NCBI RefSeq assembly: GCF_040216675.1
Contig: NZ_JAVJOR010000005.1
DNA: 64,000 nt
From: Hoeflea sp.
GTDB lineage: Bacteria; Pseudomonadota; Alphaproteobacteria; Rhizobiales; Rhizobiaceae
Reading direction: 5' to 3' (one strand)
Part shown: piece after piece, positions 14,347 through 49,173 of the stretch
How positions within the stretch are numbered: position 1 is the first letter of the stretch
How the letters are laid out: each line of letters starts with the position of its first letter
Position numbers and translations under genes: made by a program
The notes under the pieces: generated by a model
What the model was told of the DNA's origin: nothing
Database searches by the model: none
Seen by the model: only the letters and a program-made list of their open reading frames with translations

Positions 14347-15869
14347 GCATTGCCGTCATTTACACGCGCGTATCGAGCAAGGCGCAATTGAAGAAGGGCG
14401 ATGGTCTGGCCTCTCAGGAGCAGCGTTGCCGCGAATTTGCTGCCTATTAAGGCCACGAAGTGGTTGAGGTGTTTCGCGATGAAGGCGTATCCGGCGGTAT
14501 TGTGGATCGCCCTGCGATCAAGGCCATGCTCGCATGGCTGCGCAAGAACCGAAACCAAGAGCCTGTCGTTCTGATCGATGACATTTCTCGCATTGCCAGA
14601 GGCATCGAGGCGCATTGGAAATTGCGCACCGCTATCGGTTCCGTTGGAGCAAAGCTTGAAAGCCCATCCATCGAGTTTGGCGATGACAGTGACAGCCAGC
14701 TTGTTGAGAACATGCTTGCATCAGTCTCGCAGCACCAACGCCAGAAGAATGCAGAGCAAGTCGAAAACCGTATGAAGGCACGTCTGTTGAACGGATATTA
14801 TCCGTTCTGGGTGCCGACAGGCTATCGCTATGAGCGTGTCAAAGGCCATAGCGGCAAATTCATCGTCCGCAACGAACCCGAAGCATCTCTTTTACAGGAA
14901 GCGCTGGAAGGCTTTGCCTCTGGACGCTTTCAGACGCAGGCCGATGTAAAGCGCTTTCTTGAGCCGCATCCGATTTTCTCACGCGATAAGAAGGGTGAGA
15001 TTCATCCGCAGCGCATTGCCAACCTACTCACCAACAAAATCTATGCGGGTTATTTAGAATACAAGCCTTGGAATGTGCCGCTGACCAAAGGCAAGCACGA
15101 GGCTTTGATTCCGTGGGAGACGTTTCAGCGTATTCAGGCGCGTTTAAATGAAGGCGCTGTCATTCGCTCAAGGCCGGACATAGAGAGCGATTTCCCGCTC
15201 AAAGGCTTTGTGACTTGCGGATGTTGCGATAGGCCTCTGACAGCCTACTACGCCAAAGGCCGCAACAAGCACTATCCGTATTATGAGTGCTTCAACAAGG
15301 AGTGCGACGAACGCCGCAAATCCATCCGTAAGGACGTGATTGAAGGGGAGTTTGAAACCCTGATTCAATCCATGCGCCCCCATGCAAGCCTCATGTCTAC
15401 GGTCTCAGCGATGTTCCGTACGATCTGGAATGCGCGCATGTCCGGCTTCGAAGCCAAGCGTATCGAGCAGAAGCGCGCCTTGAAGGGCATTGCGGCGAAA
15501 ATCAGCAATGTCACAGACCGTCTGATCGAAACGACAAGCACGAGCGCAATCAAAGCCTATGAGGCTAAGCTTGAGCAACTTGAAGCAGAGCGCGTCATGA
15601 TTTCTGAAAATCTGGCGCAAAAGCCTGATTTGAAGCAAGACTTCGATGCAGGTTTTCGAACCGCGATGAATTTTCTCGCAAACCCTTGGAAACTATGGAT
15701 TTCTGACAACCCTGAGCACCGCAAGACCCTGATCAAACTGGTATTTGCAGCCCCGTTGCCGTACCGCCGGAATCAGGGGTTTCGAACCGCCAAAACCACC
15801 AGTCCGTTCAAGGTGTTAGCGGATATTTCAGGGGGTGAAAAAGAAATGGCGGAGAGGAAGTCCGCTTAA
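14343..15869 (+). pseudogene. Large serine recombinase (integrase) interrupted by an in-frame TAA at 14448-14450
   Basis: MSIAVIYTRVSS catalytic motif from 14343, same frame as ORF 14460-15869 (DDISRIAR, recombinase domain, Zn ribbon CGCC..YYECFNKEC, coiled coil); codon 36 is TAA. Confidence 0.85.
15844..15860 (+). repeat. att core duplicate (distal end of island 2), aaatggcggagaggaag
   Basis: Identical to 48182-48198, which overlaps the tRNA-Ser 3' end. Confidence 0.92.
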
Positions 15870-15989: not shown

Positions 15990-16013
15990 GATGTGGGGCT
16001 GGATGTGGGGCTG
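15990..16013 (+). repeat. Tandem 12-bp repeat (gatgtggggctg)x2, probable integrase arm-type sites
   Basis: 22 bp (15991-16012) identical to 48110-48131, same orientation; lies between the att core and the int start. Confidence 0.75.
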
Positions 16014-16073
16014 GATTATAAGGGCAGGCATGCTAACATCATTGTGCCCTAGCCCAGAAATCGAGCTTCAGCC

Positions 16074-17273
16074 ATGCTCACCGATGCCGCCGCACGGAAA
16101 CTTGAACCCGGATCCAAACCTCGGAGCGACGGAATGGTGCAGGGGCTGCAGCTCATCCCGTCGAAGACCAAGGGGCGTGGAAAATGGAACCTGCGGTTCG
16201 TATCGCCGGTCACCGGCAAACGTCGTGACATGGGATTGGGGACATATCCGGATATCGGCATCGCGGCGGCGCGACGAGCAGCTCTTGAAGCTCGCGATCT
16301 GATTGCATCAGGAGGCGATCCGCTTGAAGCGAAACGAGCCGCCGAACTAGAAAGGCGACTTGAGACGACCAGGCCGAGCTTCGAGCAGGCCGGGCGAAAG
16401 GTGTTTGAAGAGATTAGTCCCGGTTTCAAGAACACCAAGCATATCCGGCAATGGATCGGCACGCTGGAAACCTATGTGTTTCCCAAGATTGGGCGTCTAC
16501 CTGTCAACGAGCTACGGGCATCGGACTTCGCCGATGTCCTGAGACCAATCTGGCTCAGTAAGCCCGAGACAGCATCAAGAGTGCGCCAGCGGTGCGATAC
16601 CGTGATGAACTGGTGCGCTGCACAGGATTACGTGATCGCAAGTCCTGTGCAGAATGTTGATCGGCTTCTGCCGAAGCAGAAGGGCAAGCGCGAACGGGTC
16701 CAGCATCATCCAGCCGTTCCATGGAGAGATATCCCGTCTTTCACCGAACGTGTCCTGCGCACCGGCAGGCCGACCATGAGCAAGCTGGCTCTGGAGTTTC
16801 TCATTCTCACGGCCGCCCGATCCGGCGAAGTTCGGCACATGGAACAGTCTGAGATCGACTGGGAGGCCAAAATCTGGACCGTCCCCAAGGAGCGAATGAA
16901 AGCAGGTGTCATCCATCGCGTACCGCTTTCGCCGCGTGCGATGGAGATCCTCAGGCTCAGACAGCAGGAAGAGGCTTTCTCGTCTTTCGTCTTTCCATCG
17001 CGGAACGGAAAGCCACTCACTGACATGGCACTCACCAAGGCGCTACGTGACGCCAAAGTCAAAAGTGACACACCTGGTCGCATCGCGACTGCTCACGGTT
17101 TCCGTTCATCCTTCCGTGACTGGGCCTCGGAGAATGGCTATACCCGGGATGTCGCGGAGCGAGCCCTAGCGCACACCATCGCAAGCGCAACCGAGGCCGC
17201 TTACCACCGGACGGACCTTCTCGATCAACGGCGGAAGATGATGGACAATTGGGCGGATCACTCGGCCATATGA
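16074..17273 (+). CDS. P4-like tyrosine integrase with N-terminal arm-binding domain
   Basis: N-terminal GKRRDMGLGTYP; catalytic ARSGEV, HGFR, LAH, AYHR. Confidence 0.95.
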   Translation: MLTDAAARKLEPGSKPRSDGMVQGLQLIPSKTKGRGKWNLRFVSPVTGKRRDMGLGTYPDIGIAAARRAALEARDLIASGGDPLEAKRAAELERRLETTRPSFEQAGRKVFEEISPGFKNTKHIRQWIGTLETYVFPKIGRLPVNELRASDFADVLRPIWLSKPETASRVRQRCDTVMNWCAAQDYVIASPVQNVDRLLPKQKGKRERVQHHPAVPWRDIPSFTERVLRTGRPTMSKLALEFLILTAARSGEVRHMEQSEIDWEAKIWTVPKERMKAGVIHRVPLSPRAMEILRLRQQEEAFSSFVFPSRNGKPLTDMALTKALRDAKVKSDTPGRIATAHGFRSSFRDWASENGYTRDVAERALAHTIASATEAAYHRTDLLDQRRKMMDNWADHSAI

Positions 17274-21747: not shown

Positions 21748-22012
21748 GAATGGCCGATGTGGGTCGTAAGCCGCTATCGGCAGATACGCATTCAACTGCA
21801 GCTATTTCGGATCAGTTTTGGAAGCGGACGGAAGCTGCAGGCCGCGCAACGGAAACGTGTCTGCTTTGCGCCCCCATACTGGTCGTACGCCGCCATAGAA
21901 TGCAGTCCTGAAAGTGGTCGTCCGCTGCGGCGCGCGTAAAAGTCCGCCAAACGGAACGAAAAGGCCGTTCATGCTAACGAGATGAAGGTGCACAGGTGCG
22001 CATATTCCGACA
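21748..22012 (+). repeat. Cluster A of degenerate intergenic repeat units
   Basis: Units aatggccgatgtgggtcgtaagccg (21749) and gtgtctgctttgcgcccccatactggtcgt (21857); 21857-21917 is collinear with 26054-26114. Confidence 0.65.
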
Positions 22013-25648: not shown

Positions 25649-26053
25649 TCATACACGTCGCCTCGACTGGCGGTGCAAGTGTATCAGCGCGAGCGCGCAC
25701 GATCTAATGAAAATATTGAAAGTCGAGGGTATCTATCCGCTTGCACTCAAGGCTAGAGATAATGCTGCTAAGAAGCCCCGGCTTTCATCCAAAAATACTA
25801 TGTCAAGCGGCTGCGTACATCGCTTGGACACTCAGCCAACTTCAGTACAAGGATCGGCACGCCCGGGCGTTGGCAAAATATGCTATATGAATCCCCTAAA
25901 TCAATCCGTCGTAGAGGAAGAACGTCGTCGCATGGTTGACTTGTCTAAGCGGGAAGCCATCCAAATGAGGATGATCTCGTTGAATGCACGTATTGGAAAC
26001 TAATTGGCGCAGCGAAGCCGGCGAAACGGCCGGATTCGCACATCGCTAATGGA

Positions 26054-26118
26054 GTGTCCGCTAAGCGCCCCCAAGTCGGGCGTTGAGCGGTCTGACGTCG
26101 CATCCTAAAAGTGGACAC
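26054..26118 (+). repeat. Cluster B repeat with imperfect terminal inverted repeat
   Basis: gtgtccgct (26054-26062) ... agtggacac (26110-26118); collinear with 21857-21917. Confidence 0.7.
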
Positions 26119-26254
26119 TGCTAATGAAGGCGCAAAAGGTCAATGTTTCGGAAAGTTAAAAGGTTCGGCGTGCGGGTTGATCTTGTAAAAAGGACGGGAA
26201 GCGAACATCGGGCGATATGACGGTCGTCAAACCGCGGGGCAGGTTTTTCAGAGT

Positions 26255-32175: not shown

Positions 32176-32270
32176 GAAGGGCGGCTTTAGCGGGATTGGC
32201 AACCAAAGCTGCCAGTCCCCTCCCGGCCCCAAACAAGCCGGACGGGAATGCGCCCCCATTCCGGTCGTAC
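32176..32270 (+). repeat. Cluster D of degenerate repeat units
   Basis: 32206-32231 matches 45275-45300 at 25/26; 32250-32270 matches 21868-21888 at 19/21. Confidence 0.75.
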
Positions 32271-32485
32271 AGCACTTACGGTGTCTATCCCAAAAGTCGC
32301 CATTCGCTTTGTTACTGCATGCAAAAAGTCTCAAGCGGGCCAAGAATGGTCATGATTTGCTCGCGCTACGGCATCCGCCTTGTTATTCATCCACAGCGCT
32401 TCACGCACTTCGCGACGCCTCCTTCTAGAGCAGCACTCCATTCCGACGTTCCACCCGTGGCTGTCGAACTGGACATGGCGGCCGA

Positions 32486-42068: not shown

Positions 42069-44510
42069 ATGGAATCTGAGACGGGGAACCGAGCAAAATC
42101 ATGGGTTTCAGCGGCACTGATGATCCTGGCGTTGATGCTGCCTTTGCTCGCCGGTGCACCCACCGAAAGCCTTGCTCAAGAGAGCCCGGAAACAGACAGC
42201 AATTTGGAAGTCGTCGATCCTGCTGATCAATGGAACGAGACTGCGGCACGTGCACTGGAGGCTCTGCGCAGCGGGAAAGCCTCCAGCTCCGCCTTTGAAG
42301 TGTTGCGGCAGAAACTGGCTGACGAGCGTGACCAGGCCTTGGCTATTGCCGAAAGCGGCAGCATTTTATCCAAATCGGTTCAGGCACAGATTGACGCGCT
42401 CGGTGCTGCACCGGACGGTGACGGCAGCGAACGCGCGGACATCGCTGCCCGCCGTGCCGAGCTCAATGCATCCCTTGCGGTTGCCGATGCACCTGTAATT
42501 GCGGCCCGGGAGGCCTTTAACCGCGCAAATGTTCTGATCAGCGAAATTGATAGCGTCATCAGGGCGCGTGAGAGCGTCGAGCTTACCACTCTGCTGCCCA
42601 CGCCGATCAACCCATTTAACTGGGCCGGCGCCTTTGCTGAAATGCAGGACTATTTGGGACGCGTGCTGGTCGAATTCGAAAAAAGCATTGCCAACCCGTC
42701 CAAGGCAACCCCTCTCAAAATCCGCCTGATCGCTGCCGGTCTCCTGCTGGTGCTGTCACTTGCGGTGGTGTTCATCATCCTGCCCGTCACTCTCCGCTCG
42801 ATGAATGCCAGGGCCAGACGTGTCGACGCCAAGACAACACATTCAGGTTGGGGATTGCTGGCGGTGCTTGCGCGGCTGGTGCTTGCTTCGCTGGCAGGCA
42901 TCCTCGCCTATTCGGCCTTCAGCACACTGGACATTTCCTCCACCGCCGCGCGCTCACTGATCCGGGTGGTGCCGGCCATCGGGGCATTTCTGGTCGTCAG
43001 CTACTGGCTTGGCTACGTCATCTTTGCTCCGGATGCGCCCGAGCGCCGGCTTATGAAACTGCCGGATCATCAGGCCCGTACGGGCTTCTGGATCGTCATG
43101 GGCGTCGGATTGGTTCTCGTCGTCGAACTCGCCATTGAAGCATCGGAGAAGGACATGACCTTTCTTCCGGGCACTCATGCCGTGGCCAGTGTGTTTGCGC
43201 TGCTGCCAGGTGCGTTCCTGCTGTGGGTATTCGGCTCGATGGCACAACGTTCCACCAAGGCGCAGACTGAGAGCGACAGCATCGAGGACCCAAGCTACAC
43301 AGCAGCGCTGGTGCAGTTGCTGGCGCGGACACTGCAGGTGTTGGCCATAGCCATTGTGGTGCTGACGCTCTCCGGCTTTACCGCGCTGGCGCGGTTCGTG
43401 CTTTCGGGCTGTGCGCTGTCGCTGGGCGTCATCGGCATTCTGCTGGCCACCGACAAACTGATTGTTTCCGCGCTGGGACTGGCCGCGGGCGTATCCGGAC
43501 GGGAACATGACGAAACTCGCCAGAGTTTCCTGTCCATTGCCATCGGTCTGACGATGAGCATCGCCGCGTTGCCGGTGATCGCACTCATCTGGGGTGCCCG
43601 TCCGGCCGACATTTCCGAGTTTTGGCGTTTGATGACCGAAGGAGTGGTTGTCGGCGGAACCCGATTGTCAGCCACCGTCGTGCTTGTCTTCGCCTTCACA
43701 CTTCTTGCCGGACTGGTGGCGTCGCGCTGGCTGCAACGGTTCCTCGGATCCGCGGTGTTGCCGCGCACCCATCTCGACAGCGGCGCGCAATCCGCATTGC
43801 GGACCGGGATTGGCTATCTCGGAGCCACTGTGTCGTTGATGCTGGCCGTTGGCTTTGCCGGTATCGATCTGTCCAGCCTTGCCATCGTCTTCGGCGCGCT
43901 CTCCGTCGGGCTCGGCTTCGGCCTTCAGGCCGTCGTCTCGAACTTCATCTGCGGCATCATTTTGCTGATAGAACGTCCTTTCAAGGAAGGCGACTGGATC
44001 GAGGTTTCAGGCTACAGCGGCATCGTCCGCAAGATCTCTGTACGCTTTACCCGCCTGGAAACCTTCGATCGCGACGATGTCATCGTGCCCAATACGGATC
44101 TGATCACCGGAACGGTAAAGAACATGACACTGAGCACGATCACCGGGCGCGTGATCGTCCCTGTCGGCATCGCCTATGGAAGCGACATAGAGAAGGCGGA
44201 AAGTATATTCGTCGACATCATGTCGGCACATCCGGATGTCCTGCGAGAACCGGCGCCTGCCGTCTTGTTCAGGGGGTTGGGCGACAGCGCTCTCGATTTC
44301 GAGCTTCGCTGCTTCATTTCCAATGTCGGGCTGGGGCTGACTGTCCGGTCCGATCTGCTCGCCGGCGTCTACCGGGAACTGGACAAAGCCGGCATCGAGA
44401 TACCATTCCCGCAGCGCGATCTGCACATCAGGACATCCTCTGGTCCAACGGATCTGTCAGCGCAGAATCCCTCTGAAGCGGAGCCGACAACCTCTCCGCA
44501 ACCAGGGTGA
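42069..44510 (+). CDS. Large MscS-family mechanosensitive channel with periplasmic coiled-coil (DUF3772-like)
   Basis: GALSVGLGFGLQAVVSNFICG, LIERPFKEGDWI, IEIPFPQRDLHI. Confidence 0.9.
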   Translation: MESETGNRAKSWVSAALMILALMLPLLAGAPTESLAQESPETDSNLEVVDPADQWNETAARALEALRSGKASSSAFEVLRQKLADERDQALAIAESGSILSKSVQAQIDALGAAPDGDGSERADIAARRAELNASLAVADAPVIAAREAFNRANVLISEIDSVIRARESVELTTLLPTPINPFNWAGAFAEMQDYLGRVLVEFEKSIANPSKATPLKIRLIAAGLLLVLSLAVVFIILPVTLRSMNARARRVDAKTTHSGWGLLAVLARLVLASLAGILAYSAFSTLDISSTAARSLIRVVPAIGAFLVVSYWLGYVIFAPDAPERRLMKLPDHQARTGFWIVMGVGLVLVVELAIEASEKDMTFLPGTHAVASVFALLPGAFLLWVFGSMAQRSTKAQTESDSIEDPSYTAALVQLLARTLQVLAIAIVVLTLSGFTALARFVLSGCALSLGVIGILLATDKLIVSALGLAAGVSGREHDETRQSFLSIAIGLTMSIAALPVIALIWGARPADISEFWRLMTEGVVVGGTRLSATVVLVFAFTLLAGLVASRWLQRFLGSAVLPRTHLDSGAQSALRTGIGYLGATVSLMLAVGFAGIDLSSLAIVFGALSVGLGFGLQAVVSNFICGIILLIERPFKEGDWIEVSGYSGIVRKISVRFTRLETFDRDDVIVPNTDLITGTVKNMTLSTITGRVIVPVGIAYGSDIEKAESIFVDIMSAHPDVLREPAPAVLFRGLGDSALDFELRCFISNVGLGLTVRSDLLAGVYRELDKAGIEIPFPQRDLHIRTSSGPTDLSAQNPSEAEPTTSPQPG

Positions 44511-44578
44511 TTTCGTGCTCAACTCATCCCCATCAGGCCGGACCAATGGACGTGCTCAGGTGGCGCGGTGGCCCTTGA

Positions 44579-45100
44579 TTGTTTCTGCTGATTGCCGGTC
44601 TCCTGGCGCTTCACTTGGCGATTGCCACGAACGCGAGCCTCTTGAGGCGGCGTGCCGCAATCGCAATTGCCTGTCTGGCGGCATTGCCTCTCACATTAGG
44701 GCCAGTCGTTCCGATTGCCCATTTCATTCTTGAGGCCATACGCAGGCCACTTCTTTGGAGTGCGCAGACTTTCGCCGCTCTGCTTGTGCTTGCACTCGTG
44801 TCGCATCTGGCCATTGCAATGGAAGACGGGTACCAGTTGGTATCTTGGGTTCCCTTCTTTGGTAACCAGTTTAATCAAACCTTATTGCTGAAATCGCCAA
44901 TCTGGCTGTCAGACGATGAGCTAGGCCAGCCAACGCCAGGGCTGTGGGACGAACCAACCCATATCGGGAATTGGTTGGCAGCAGCAGCGGAGTGCGTCCT
45001 TCTCGCCTTTTCAGCATGGTCCATCCAGGAATTGATTGTGGTTTATTGCGGCTATCCGGTTCTCAATGCGGCCTTGGCACACGCGACGCTCAGCCGATAG
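44579..45100 (+). CDS. Hypothetical membrane protein
   Basis: Several hydrophobic segments; start uncertain. Confidence 0.45.
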   Translation: MFLLIAGLLALHLAIATNASLLRRRAAIAIACLAALPLTLGPVVPIAHFILEAIRRPLLWSAQTFAALLVLALVSHLAIAMEDGYQLVSWVPFFGNQFNQTLLLKSPIWLSDDELGQPTPGLWDEPTHIGNWLAAAAECVLLAFSAWSIQELIVVYCGYPVLNAALAHATLSR

Positions 45101-45203
45101 TGTTTCTGTTGCCAGACCGCTGCACTCTATGGGGTACCCGACCTCGGACTAAACAACATCTGAAACTTCGGACATCCGCGAACCTTTGCCGCAAAGAGAA
45201 TGG

Positions 45204-45310
45204 AAGTCTGCAATCGGCCTGACGCGACGTCGACAGTCAAAGGCGAATGTCTGTTTAACCGGCTTCGTTCCCACAAGCTGCCAGTCCGCTCCCGGCCCCA
45301 TTCCAGACGT
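45204..45310 (+). repeat. Cluster E of degenerate repeat units, just downstream of the second tyrosine recombinase
   Basis: aagctgccagtccgctcccggcccca (45275-45300) followed by ttccagacgt; matches cluster D. Confidence 0.75.
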
Positions 45311-45366
45311 TAAGTAAGATCAGCTTTAGCTGGCCGCACGTGCCCTAAGGGGATCATTCCTGCCCT

Positions 45367-46989
45367 TCACCTGACCGAATTCCGCTCATAGATACCCTTA
45401 GCCCGCTCATAATCGGGATCAGCTGAATTAATCTCTCTGCGCTCGAAAGCCAGGTAGAGCTCGAGCTCGCTGCGGTTAGAGAGTGCCCGCCGGCAAACCT
45501 CATCCAAGGCCTCCTCGCGATCACTGTCTTGCATTAAGGCATAGTGCTTGTGGGTCGTCTCGGTCGGCGTGTGACCGAGATTGAGCTTAAGAGCGACTTC
45601 TTCGAAGCCCTCCATTTTCCCTCGTTTGGACAGAAACGGATGCAAGACCTTTCGGAAGCCATGTGACGATATCCCTTCCTCCGAGATGCCGGCAGCCTGG
45701 GCGGCATCCTTGATGACCCGCTGGATCGGAGCATCTGATCTCCAGCATTCAGGTGGTTCGGTTTCTGCCGAACGGTAGCCGAGGCCAATCGCGTTCGGTT
45801 GCATGTATCGATCCGGGAGAAAAAACGGCGCATCCGCGACAAATCCATTCTCCTCGCGCCACCTGGCCCAGTCCCTGATCGCATCGAGAAGCCCGGAGCC
45901 AAGATCAAGGCAGTAGGTCCGGATGTGCTTGCTGAACTTGGTTCTCACCTCACGCGGATCCTGATTGATCCATCTGGTGTGCATGTTCACATGCTTGCCG
46001 CGGAGTGTGATCAGGGCGCTCACGCGCATGCCTGTGGTGATGAACATGGCGATAATGGCACGGTTCCGAAGTTCGATTGGGTTCGACTTGGGCATGGCCG
46101 AGAAGATACATAGCGCCTGGTCAAAGGTAAGTCGTGTCTCTTTGACACTGCTCGATTCTGCTGACCGCTCCTTGTGGGAGAGTCTGAAGTACCCGGGGAA
46201 GTCGGGATCCATAACGATCCCCGGCCGACGCTGAAACCATGTGAAGAACGTACCGCAGCGATCAAGAGTGTGTCCGAGAGTTGACCAGCTTAGCCCCATG
46301 TCACCTTCCAGTGCGCGTCTTCTGCGCAGCTCCTCCTTGAAGTTGCGGGCATCCGCGATCCTGGTCTGCTCGAACGGCTTGTGACCAAGGAAAGCGGTCA
46401 TCCGGGCAAGAGCACGCAGGTGCTCATCAACCGTTCTCGGGTCGAATTCCCGGTTGCTTTCAAGGAAGACACGGTAGTCGTAAAGCCACCGAAGATTGCC
46501 GTTGTGGGTTTCAGGCGGAATCGAAGCCCCGTTTCTCCATGTTTCCCCAGAGACACCATCATCACTTTCGTCGGATGAGTGTCCGGGGATGTTGAGGGCA
46601 GAGGCAAAGATTTCGGGCACTTCGTCAGGTGGTATGTCAGCTTGTAGCATGTTGTGGCAATCCGTGCACATGCCTGTCACCGAGAGGCAGTCGGTGTCAG
46701 CCACAGAAGTTTTGATGGTACCGGTGATCACAGGCTTGAAGCCCAGGCAGACAGGACAGTGAATGCGGCCATCCTTATGTGGGCGGCCATCGGGCCAGCG
46801 GATCCCAGTGATGAACCGGCGCACCTTGTATCCCGCAAAGAGCTGCGGCCGTTTGTTGTCAACCGGCTCCAGCCCGGCACGTATCCAGTTCAGGACCGTG
46901 CTGTCGCTTACACTGTACATCTCCTTGAGATCGTCACGGGAATAGACCCAGTGCCTGCGTGCTTTGGTGGGATCGTATTTGCGCGGCAT
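45367..46989 (-). CDS. Tyrosine recombinase with N-terminal excisionase-like HTH and Cys4 zinc-binding domain
   Basis: HTH YSRDDLKEMYSVSDSTVLNWIRAGL; CPVC..CTDC; catalytic TGMRVSAL, SHGFRK, LGH, HYA. Confidence 0.8.
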   Translation of the reverse strand: MPRKYDPTKARRHWVYSRDDLKEMYSVSDSTVLNWIRAGLEPVDNKRPQLFAGYKVRRFITGIRWPDGRPHKDGRIHCPVCLGFKPVITGTIKTSVADTDCLSVTGMCTDCHNMLQADIPPDEVPEIFASALNIPGHSSDESDDGVSGETWRNGASIPPETHNGNLRWLYDYRVFLESNREFDPRTVDEHLRALARMTAFLGHKPFEQTRIADARNFKEELRRRRALEGDMGLSWSTLGHTLDRCGTFFTWFQRRPGIVMDPDFPGYFRLSHKERSAESSSVKETRLTFDQALCIFSAMPKSNPIELRNRAIIAMFITTGMRVSALITLRGKHVNMHTRWINQDPREVRTKFSKHIRTYCLDLGSGLLDAIRDWARWREENGFVADAPFFLPDRYMQPNAIGLGYRSAETEPPECWRSDAPIQRVIKDAAQAAGISEEGISSHGFRKVLHPFLSKRGKMEGFEEVALKLNLGHTPTETTHKHYALMQDSDREEALDEVCRRALSNRSELELYLAFERREINSADPDYERAKGIYERNSVR

Positions 46990-46991
46990 GA

Positions 46992-47546
46992 TCAGCGACC
47001 ATTGGGCCTTCGCGCCTTGCAGACATCAACATAGCAATCGATCTCCGCCGGATCCCAGCGCGTTGAACCGCCAATCTTGATCGGCTGCGGGAAATCCGGA
47101 TCGTTGTTCTTCAGTCGCCATACGGCAGTGACGCTGGTGTTTAGCCGAACGGCGACGTCACCGACGCACATAAGCGGCCTAGGAATGACTGGGGCTGTTG
47201 GCTTCTGATGGTTATCTGCTGTTGAAGGTGTGGCTTCAACGGGCTCTAGGTCCGCATCAACTTGCTGGCGTTGAATTTCAGGCGACAAGGGTCCTGTTCT
47301 TGTAGGCTCTTTCTTCTGGCCGGGACCCGTCGGCGGATTGGACCGCGAGGACTGGGGGTGCTCAATAGGCCGTGGCGACCTGCCAGTCTCACGGGCCTGG
47401 CTCGCTTCCGCGTATGGGTTAGTGTGATTTTCTTCGGCATGCGGGACGGTCGGGGAGGAGCTTTCATGGAAAGTCAAATCATCAGGTGTTCTGGCATTGC
47501 ATTCACATGACGTTTCGCCACTGTGCCTATGGGAAGGCTTTCTCAT
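46992..47546 (-). CDS. AlpA-family regulator/excisionase with long N-terminal extension
   Basis: C-terminal LMCVGDVAVRLNTSVTAVWRL..FPQPIKIGGSTRW. Confidence 0.75.
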   Translation of the reverse strand: MRKPSHRHSGETSCECNARTPDDLTFHESSSPTVPHAEENHTNPYAEASQARETGRSPRPIEHPQSSRSNPPTGPGQKKEPTRTGPLSPEIQRQQVDADLEPVEATPSTADNHQKPTAPVIPRPLMCVGDVAVRLNTSVTAVWRLKNNDPDFPQPIKIGGSTRWDPAEIDCYVDVCKARRPNGR

Positions 47547-47965
47547 GTGCTTCGCCCCAGGCCGGCTTCATAAACCAGCAGCTCGGCAAGCACCCAACGT
47601 GTGGCGCCACTGCCTAGCTTCACTGGTTTCGGAAAAGCAGGGTTTTCATGAGTCCACCGCCAAATGGTGGATGGCGAAACTGCGTATCGCGCAGCTACCT
47701 GTTTGACGGTCAGGAAAGGACCGGAAGCTCCGCCAAAGGAACCATTTCCAGGTTCCGGCATCGATGTTGACGATCTGCTGCCTCGCCTTGATGCGGAGCC
47801 ATTGCCAAACGACGAAGCATCAGAGTTTTGCCGAGCGAGCGTAGGAGAAGCAACTGCTTGCGAGATCCGATCTACGTCATTTCGCGCAGATGTATCTGCC
47901 GAAGGCAGCTTCGCAGCATAGAAAAGATCAGTTTGTTTGGATTCGGGCGCATTCCGACGTGACAT
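47543..47965 (-). CDS. AlpA-family regulator/excisionase
   Basis: FLTVKQVAARYAVSPSTIWRW..FPKPVKLGSGATRW; stop overlaps the next start. Confidence 0.8.
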   Translation of the reverse strand: MSRRNAPESKQTDLFYAAKLPSADTSARNDVDRISQAVASPTLARQNSDASSFGNGSASRRGSRSSTSMPEPGNGSFGGASGPFLTVKQVAARYAVSPSTIWRWTHENPAFPKPVKLGSGATRWVLAELLVYEAGLGRST

Positions 47966-48109
47966 GACCAGCCACCCCCAATTTGAGGATAAGAACTAGC
48001 AACGTCATGCGCTGGGCAATCTATCTCCCGATTCGGTGCGATTGATCAAGTGCTGTCGTATTCGGTCTCAATTGATCCGATCCGGCGGTTGAGGCGCAAT
48101 CAGATGTGA

Positions 48110-48131
48110 ATGTGGGGCTGGATGTGGGGCT
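48110..48131 (+). repeat. Arm-type repeat atgtggggctggatgtggggct
   Basis: Identical to 15991-16012; 50 bp from the att core. Confidence 0.75.
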
Positions 48132-48181
48132 AGAAATTTGCGTAAATAAAAGTCTTATTACTTCCAGACAGTTATCCATAA

Positions 48182-48198
48182 AAATGGCGGAGAGGAAG
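48182..48198 (+). repeat. att core at the tRNA-Ser 3' end
   Basis: aaatggcggagaggaag, identical to 15844-15860. Confidence 0.92.
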
Positions 48199-48274
48199 GG
48201 ATTCGAACCCTCGATACCGTTCCCGGTATACTCCCTTAGCAGGGGAGCGCCTTCGACCACTCGGCCACCTCTCC
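48185..48274 (-). tRNA. tRNA-Ser(GCT), CCA encoded
   Basis: GGAGAGGTGGCCGAGTGGTCGAAGG..CTCCC-CT-GCT-AA-GGGAG..long variable arm..GGTTCGAATCCC..CTCTCCGCCA. Confidence 0.97.
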
Positions 48275-49173
48275 GTTGCCCGTCTGTTACCGCAGCGGGG
48301 CAACGTAATCAACCGCAATTCCGCCACCCTGTCATCTCGCTTTCCAACTGTGGATTTGCTCTGAGGCTGATCGCCCTGAGAAGCGCACCGCGGGCATACG
48401 GTGCCTTGATCTGCAGTTCCCGGGCGCGCCGGAATGAAGAGTGGCGTCCGACCCAGCTGACGGGCTTCCACATCGGTGAGCAGAGAGCCCATTTCGGCTC
48501 CCGGGCATTTACACATTTCAAGACCATGAGCGGCAGAATGGTGTGGTGCCGGATGGATCAGCGCCTGCGATGCCTTTCCAGATGCGATCTGAATGAAAGG
48601 AGTGGGCTGAACCTCAAGGAAAGGCATATTCGCTGCCCCAACTTGGGATCTGCACGGTTCAGCAACAGAGGCTCCAGAAAGACATGGCTATCCGACAGGT
48701 GGCCCGTCCGGACTTCCGCCCGGTGCTTTCCGAATTGCCACCTCATTCCAGTGAACTGTTGAATGCCCGAATCCCAAATGGGCCCGGCGCAAGTGTGTTC
48801 GGTCTCGAATCGAATCGAATGCGGGGCGCGCAAGACTTTGACTCCCCGGGGCGGCGAGAGGCGGAATCACCGGTCGCACGCTCCAATCGCGTCGCTTTCC
48901 CGGCCGAAAACGCTGCCAAAGCCTAATGAAAGGTAAACAAATCATGGGCCGGTCGGTGATTTCGTGTCATTTGTGCAACAGGCTAAAGGGAAGGCATGGG
49001 GTGAATGTCCGAACCCGGTTGATCGGCGTTGCACCGCAGCGGCTGGCGAGTATGTTCGATCTCGAAGCGAGGCGGGCATCCGCCTGTCTTCTTCCATCGT
49101 GGGGATGGGGCAGGGAACGCTGTCCTTCAGCAACAACCCAGACCCTTTATTACTTTTGACTGGAGGTCAGAAA

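Follow-up and report, generated by a model that had tools for sequence, protein, structure and literature searches.

The subject of this analysis is an operon of three genes at positions 45367–47965 of a 64,000-nucleotide (nt) stretch of Hoeflea sp. DNA (contig NZ_JAVJOR010000005.1; hereafter the window), where it occupies the tRNA-proximal end of a genomic island. Read along the minus strand, it begins with alpA1 (47543–47965), which encodes an AlpA-family winged-helix protein of 140 amino acids (aa), continues with alpA2 (46992–47546), whose 184-aa product has a C-terminal AlpA-type helix-turn-helix (HTH) and is the partner of rec, and ends with rec itself (45367–46989), a tyrosine recombinase of 540 aa recognized by Pfam, by alignment and by its AlphaFold model. 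The first two genes overlap by four nt (ATGA, 47543–47546) and the last two are separated by a gap of 2 nt (46990–46991), which agrees with the three coupled minus-strand genes proposed by an earlier reading of the same DNA (the original prediction); as the features of the operon are kept across many genomes, these are not chance open reading frames (ORFs). A scan of 44400–48400 for promoters and terminators gave no result above that of shuffled sequence. The operon is very probably composite, that is, alpA1 comes from the backbone of the island, and alpA2 and rec form a separate, portable pair.

The protein encoded by rec had been described as the fusion of an excisionase-like HTH and a four-cysteine motif to a complete catalytic set, and this description is upheld both by Pfam and by an alignment of 25 homologs (out of 72 found) that reaches down to 26% identity. 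Rec scores 42.5 bits with Phage_integrase (PF00589; cut-off 27.1; E 7.6e-11), and it possesses what that family requires for catalysis, namely the R-K-H-R-H pentad and the tyrosine nucleophile: R322, K351, R446 and Y483 are invariant in the alignment, as are the cysteines C78, C81 and C111, and C108, H443 and H473 are present in at least 90% of the aligned homologs. There are weaker matches to a SAM-like core-binding domain (E 3.9e-5) and to HTH_17 (E 0.037). In the AlphaFold model (pLDDT 80), some 330–350 columns can be aligned to XerA, IntI, Cre, residues 75–356 of lambda Int and the Int of Tn1549, and for this reason rec is taken to be a full recombinase, with a core-binding domain (residues ~165–280) followed by a catalytic domain (~285–490). 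Ahead of these, residues 1–130 comprise a Xis/MerR-like winged helix and a 4-Cys zinc ribbon; when this N-domain was folded alone (pLDDT 83) and submitted to Foldseek, partial matches only were returned, all of them with E > 0.1, in which the first ~50 residues resemble winged helices of the MerR/BldC/terminase type and the remainder resembles zinc ribbons. As for the affinities of the whole protein, a sequence search of the PDB returned XerA and XerD only, and marginally, and the best NCBIfam matches are XerA, XerD and XerC at 37–57 bits versus equivalog cut-offs of 220–335, with rec carrying ~165 N-terminal residues beyond these three. The integron-integrase models TIGR02249 and NF011946 do not match rec at E ≤ 0.1 (TcpM, scanned for comparison, matches TIGR02249 weakly), and the Pfam domains Arm-DNA-bind_3 and Phage_int_M, typical of P4-like (IntSXT-type) enzymes, are absent from rec, both being present in the integrase at 16074–17273. 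No published description of this recombinase family was found.

That integrase belongs to the island in which the operon lies. The 3′ end of a tRNA-Ser(GCT) gene (48185–48274, minus strand; ARAGORN) is the site of integration, and the last 17 nt of the tRNA form the attachment (att) core at this end (48182–48198), which is directly repeated at 15844–15860 (BLAST against the window), a 16-mer of this core having exactly two occurrences in the whole genome. Since the 17-bp direct repeats bound both ends, the island extends from 15861 to 48181 (32.3 kb); among its cargo are Gabija-like genes as well as an envelope block, and a neighboring island is present to the left of 15844. The P4-like integrase (16074–17273, plus strand; Arm-DNA-bind_3, Phage_int_M and catalytic domains in Pfam) is situated at the opposite end from rec, and tandem arm-type repeats, ATGTGGGGCTGG, are found at 48110–48134, with a twin pair at 15991–16015 beside the integrase. 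Once the island is excised as a circle, transcription of the rec operon and of the integrase would run in opposite directions away from attP.

The genome contains four close copies of ATGTGGGGCTGG, located where the C9 and C10 islands begin and end, and a fifth match, on C12, has 3 mismatches. The C10 island (G000:C10:887056–932420, ~45 kb) is a second island of the same genome, inserted at tRNA-Ser(CGA), and it has an integrase 92% identical to that of the window at its far end, ~45 kb away, an alpA1 54% identical with upstream DNA 71% identical, identical arm repeats at both ends, and a paralog of rec (rec′) of 27% identity; the att core at its far end differs from the tRNA by one base. In other genomes, the ATGTGGGGCTGG motif follows tRNA-Ser in L002, L007 and L014, where the integrases are 61–92% identical to that of the window (61–62% in L007 and L014), and is missing from L015, with an integrase 43% identical. 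Because they recur with the integrase in C10, and because the repeats follow the integrase clade, alpA1 and the arm repeats are assigned to the P4-integrase system, and the co-occurrence of alpA1 with the integrase and the repeats makes it, to judge from sequence, a likely excision factor or activator for this enzyme. The suggestion of the original prediction that rec acts on the repeat clusters is not sustained for the ATGTGGGGCTGG clusters at the two ends, which go with the P4-like integrase clade and not with rec. Three relatives were examined for an unoccupied tRNA-Ser(GCT) site; the DNA downstream is in them unrelated to that of this genome and without rec, int or alpA, and no clean attB was obtained.

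The portability of alpA2-rec becomes apparent when the closest relatives of rec are considered (G081 and L072–L076, 80–86% aa identity), which are encoded in operons with the order c1-xis-alpA2-rec, the xis of which matches TIGR01764 above cut-off. The G081 island is bounded by tRNA-Leu(CAG) and by a 33-nt repeat of the 3′ end of this tRNA; an integrase only 28% identical to that of the window adjoins the tRNA, and the rec operon is at the far end, with a rec 80% identical to that of the window at both the aa and the nt level. The G004 island is the mirror image of this one. The homology of the window DNA to G081, L072 and L073 is limited to the interval from 47415, inside alpA2, to within ~10 nt of the rec stop, and in the tRNA-Leu islands with unrelated integrases the DNA that is 80–84% identical to the window ends at the rec stop codon. 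This confinement of the homology implies that the pair has been exchanged between backbones with different integrases and different att sites. It follows also, from the presence of an 80%-identical rec beside a 28%-identical integrase, that the target of rec must differ from that of the P4-like integrase, and, from the presence of near-identical rec genes in tRNA-Leu islands with unrelated integrases, that rec is not the enzyme of the tRNA site; we are confident, short of certainty, that it is not the tRNA integrase of the island. Thus, the second recombination module with a target of its own, as originally proposed, gains support, with the correction that alpA2 and rec are its members and alpA1, which travels with the tRNA-Ser/P4-integrase backbone, is not.

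The arrangement of these islands is constant in several aspects. The integrase and the rec operon stand at opposite ends in the window, C10, G081 and G004, and also, as judged by gene position, in G001, G002, G003 and L011; the islands with this layout use four tRNA targets, and rec always faces inward from the end opposite the integrase. The distance between the end of the alpA2 ortholog and the start of rec is 2 nt in all 15 loci out of 15. With respect to the AlpA proteins, alpA1 matches Pfam AlpA (PF05930) at 30 bits (cut-off 21); alpA2 of the window has no Pfam match and is recognized by PHROG 66 (“excisionase and transcriptional regulator”), its L007 ortholog matching PF05930 at 27.7 bits. 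The long N-extensions that had been noticed on both proteins are real, and that of alpA2, low in complexity, yet holds a conserved NPYAEASQA motif, from which a variable low-complexity linker leads to the C-terminal AlpA-type HTH. This motif lies within an otherwise disordered extension (window 47415–47546; orthologs in L003–L016), and the nucleotide homology to other islands starts exactly there; from its sequence it may be a motif of protein interaction.

As regards where rec could act, the principal candidate is a conserved site at 45275–45317, that is, 50–92 nt past the rec stop, which marks the boundary between backbone and cargo. It holds a 26-bp repeat (45275–45300), a second copy of which (32206–32231) forms, together with one element of ~65 nt, a bipartite junction (32206–32305) between the Gabija block and the 13-kb envelope block. 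Further ~65-nt junction elements, co-oriented with the others, are located at 26050–26120 and 21853–21923. In other words, a related motif appears at 21.9, 26.1 and 32.2 kb, always in one orientation, four of its seven genome-wide matches are inside the island, and the internal copies are the ~65-nt elements, each with a variable middle between two conserved boxes. Folded as a consensus, the element yields a hairpin of only 4 bp, with one compensatory change, and hence an attC-like structure is unsupported.

The boundary after rec can also be seen in other islands. Variable cargo, for the most part anti-phage, begins ~60–100 nt beyond the rec stop codon. Across 14 loci, not one of the genes downstream of rec is conserved, and the cargo past rec in L003 and L009–L013 comprises a BREX-like DUF6079 protein with a methylase, Cas3, a reverse transcriptase of 1313 aa, an HsdR-like protein and a DEAD/MZB helicase of 2032 aa. 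The homology between related islands ends from +57 to +143 nt past the rec stop (between +74 and +97 in five of the seven pairs), as in L005 versus L078, which share 97% identity as far as +95 and no relation from there on. A similar site is found at +40 to +55 in L003/G004, L004 and L072. Where 1.35 matches were expected, a weight matrix built from the window copies alone gave 5 when applied to other loci (323 kb in total), and three of the five fall within 1.2 kb downstream of rec; with a hidden Markov model (HMM) made from the three window elements, the best five non-training matches in 5.4 Mb are all in rec-bearing islands (L078 twice, L005, L072 and G004). In L072 and G004, co-oriented copies bracket the cargo, one just after rec and the other ~450–490 nt past the 3′ end of the integrase. 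With a weight matrix from the four internal window copies, the rec-adjacent site was recovered only in L004 and, weakly, in L005. Taken as a pattern in sequence, the site and the elements suggest the capture or exchange of cargo by rec.

If we accept this reading, the events could have the following course. The P4-like integrase would place the island, 32.3 kb long, in tRNA-Ser at the 3′ end of the gene, with alpA1 as its excision factor or activator and with the ATGTGGGGCTGG repeats on either side of the att core as its arm-type sites. Being produced from the excision operon, rec would act upon induced excision of the island, and would do so not at the tRNA att but at the site directly downstream of its own gene, the order of recombinase gene and site being that of lambda xis-int-attP. 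Its fused Xis-like winged helix and zinc ribbon would provide a second DNA-binding surface, and AlpA2, translationally coupled to it, would be an accessory protein that binds or bends DNA. Recombination between the rec-proximal site and the ~65-nt elements at the ends of the blocks would then result in the capture, deletion or swap of cargo blocks. The binding to DNA, the catalysis, the sites used and this outcome are all inferred, and the statement as a whole (composite operon, portable pair, site after rec and role in cargo exchange) is put forward tentatively, its chances being somewhat below even. A bolder version, in which alpA2-rec, its site and the ~65-nt elements would constitute, within islands integrated at tRNA genes, an integron-like platform that captures, stacks and swaps whole anti-phage systems of several genes each, in the form of circular blocks and with no need of the island integrase, is rather unlikely.

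Various observations weigh against cargo exchange by rec. When repeats of the rec flank were sought within 12 other loci and the C10 island, and when the two flanks, that of rec and that of the integrase, were set against each other in L011, G081 and C10, nothing was found above chance, and the cassette-like pattern is confined so far to a Hoeflea/Aliihoeflea-like clade, in which several of the element-bearing loci are related phylogenetically and therefore not independent. Some of the copies of the element, in L005 and L078, are inverted, unlike a simple array. Moreover, the motif was in part defined from copies that were subsequently counted, a circularity that the matrix and HMM controls reduce but do not remove. 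Finally, a sharp boundary between core and cargo also exists in hotspots that lack a dedicated recombinase. Therefore, of the action on repeats that the original prediction ascribed to rec, what is favored is the rec-proximal site and the junction elements, by their position and their recurrence in four or five related islands, and in the more distant islands the proposal gains no support.

The comparison with known systems helps to delimit what cargo exchange by rec would mean. As in lambda xis-int-attP and the AlpA-IntA of tRNA/tmRNA islands of the CP4-57 type, a small winged-helix factor is encoded just upstream of a recombinase and coupled to it, and a candidate site directly follows the recombinase gene; an AlpA at one end of the island and an integrase at the other have also been described in defense islands (PMC12595487). 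However, unlike in these systems, rec is not the enzyme of the island att site, its N-domain is a Xis-like winged helix plus zinc ribbon rather than a canonical arm-binding domain, and the island that carries alpA2-rec already has a complete P4-like integrase with an AlpA of its own. The resemblance to integrons (IntI, attI, attC) is that a tyrosine recombinase heads a run of co-oriented gene blocks, that the blocks are bounded by ~65-nt elements with conserved ends and a variable middle, and that there is a distinct site beside the recombinase gene; in contrast, rec matches no integron-integrase model, the blocks are multi-gene, of 4–13 kb and with their own promoters, the elements have no convincing hairpin, the pattern occurs in one clade only and the transcription of rec runs toward the array. 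Gene blocks lined up beside a recombinase-bearing element, with repeated recombination sites between them, are also characteristic of the accretion of cis-mobilizable and integrative and conjugative elements (CIME/ICE) in Streptococcus thermophilus and of the pdif (XerC/D) modules of Acinetobacter plasmids, although in the present case the junction sites are neither the island att nor dif-like, and the candidate recombinase is dedicated and encoded by the element.

An alternative explanation for the site adjacent to rec is that it serves to resolve multimers or tandem arrays of the excised island, as in Cre/loxP, TnpI/IRS or TnpS-TnpT/rst, in which case the additional copies of the element would be traces left by earlier inter-island exchange at that site. 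Rec would fit here as a simple Xer-like recombinase (its best families are XerA, XerC and XerD, all far below cut-off) provided with an accessory protein and with one conserved adjacent site in most islands, and tandem arrays do occur at these tRNA sites, witness the island to the left of 15844 and the duplicated integrase fragment of G004. However, no replication genes were recognized in the island, an N-terminal arm-type domain with a partner resembling a recombination directionality factor is more typical of directional integrases, and co-oriented active sites within the cargo would delete it; the proposal is unlikely. Alternatively, and with a chance that seems to us smaller, rec could be an initiator of transfer or replication, a nickase similar to a tyrosine recombinase that acts at an adjacent origin of transfer (oriT) with AlpA2 as the accessory protein of the relaxosome, so that the excised, non-conjugative island could ride on the conjugation machinery of a helper, like MpsA/MpsB, MobK and TcpM. 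The island has an integrase and no recognizable transfer genes; rec, being co-transcribed with the excision factor, would be made as the circle forms; the alpA2-rec pair swaps between islands whatever their att specificity; the conserved site adjoins the rec gene; and, for relaxases of recombinase type, a pairing with a small partner has been documented in SGI1 (PMC6414798), where, as here, a second, non-integrase gene of this type belongs to an integrase-bearing non-conjugative island and is accompanied by a small DNA-binding partner and a nearby cis site, a likeness shared by MobK and TcpM. Such recombinase-like relaxases are reported to lie near integrases in 96% of cases (bioRxiv 10.64898/2026.01.13.699239). 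Nevertheless, the MOB_M class has the catalytic domain without a core-binding domain, and MobK, TcpM and MpsA are described accordingly (PMC8152469), whereas rec keeps the SAM-like core-binding domain and adds a further N-domain; in an hhalign profile comparison with TcpM, no specific relation came to light (probability 0.2); its partner, the gene of which lies upstream, resembles AlpA and not a core-binding domain; relatives of rec are almost absent from plasmids (4 weak matches in 72,556 records); and several oriT-like copies across the cargo would be unexpected.

The two remaining alternatives concern whether rec recombines at all, and whether it does so at the tRNA. The three DNA-binding modules of rec and the operon it shares with two AlpA-type regulators could mean that it is non-catalytic here, and only a regulator that binds the DNA of island or defense genes, which is highly improbable given catalytic residues that are invariant or nearly so in homologs down to 26% identity. 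Lower still do we place the idea that rec is an alternative, or the true, integrase of the island, with the P4-like enzyme redundant or a neighbor's; it is true that tRNA-Ser is followed directly downstream by genes of the rec/rec′ type in the window, C10 and no fewer than 10 other loci, but tRNA-Leu islands carry an 80%-identical rec at the end distal to the tRNA, the distribution of the arm repeats is that of the P4-like integrase clade, and rec is never at a permuted island boundary. This candidate was rejected, the tRNA-Leu islands G081 and G004 having largely ruled it out.

The interest of these readings lies in the open question of how defense islands gain and exchange whole immune systems so rapidly, since what is found at the junction between core and defense cargo, recurrently in many alphaproteobacterial islands, is a dedicated recombinase with an accessory protein. 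If cargo exchange by rec is correct, this would be a new mechanism for the modular turnover of defenses, and a compact pair of recombinase and site of possible use as a tool; if, on the other hand, rec turns out to nick DNA like a relaxase or to be a resolvase, the mobilization or the stability of islands that lack transfer genes would thereby be explained. In either case, genes of the rec type should not be annotated as the island integrase.

The pair of the window belongs to a wider family. A profile of the N-domain finds 1167 representative clusters, mostly free-standing proteins of 140–180 aa, and a free-standing HTH-Zn gene exists in 27 of the 401 alphaproteobacterial genomes sampled. In a split form (L052–L071), an HTH-Zn protein of 150–180 aa is encoded, in most of the loci fetched, directly upstream of a recombinase of ~370 aa that is homologous to residues 150–510 of rec, often on the same strand as an upstream P4-like integrase and a xis/alpA gene. 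In 7 of 11 loci, tRNA-Ser and an alpA1-like gene precede a gene of the rec′ type (24–29% identical to rec), and on a Ruegeria megaplasmid an AlpA, a regulator and a recombinase of 535 aa are succeeded by restriction-modification genes. The basic plan is thus xis/alpA, HTH-Zn module and recombinase, in this order, and this set regularly accompanies P4-like integrases; alpA2 and the fusion of the HTH-Zn module to the recombinase are features of particular clades.

Some further observations were made in the course of the analysis. The loci of the split form are often colinear as well with an uncharacterized gene of 200–330 aa, and beside a tRNA-Phe (L067:1390–2438) a P4-type arm-binding domain and the HTH-Zn module are united in a single ORF, directly followed by a recombinase gene. 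The c1 gene, first in the rec operon at the edge of islands of the tRNA-Leu type (L003:8151–9101, L009:8334–9086, G081:C1:3706373–3707242), encodes a conserved protein of 250–316 aa with no match in Pfam, NCBIfam or PHROG. In the window, a hydrophobic ORF of 173 aa (44579–45100, plus strand), without a family match in Pfam or PHROG, is placed between a gene for an MscK-like channel and the rec-proximal site. In a genome of the same genus (L046, G185:C1), a single ATGTGGGGCT unit stands ~70 nt away from the orthologous tRNA-Ser(GCT)'s 3′ end, and within 15 kb neither rec nor int nor alpA is present; the unit may be left over from a lost island, or the genes of the island may lie further off. 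Lastly, in G004 (G004:C7:656288–656750 and 671907–672294), direct repeats of 275 nt and 79 nt duplicate the 5′ end of the tRNA-Leu integrase and its upstream arm, and a different P4-like integrase adjoins it, an arrangement that records the tandem accretion of islands.

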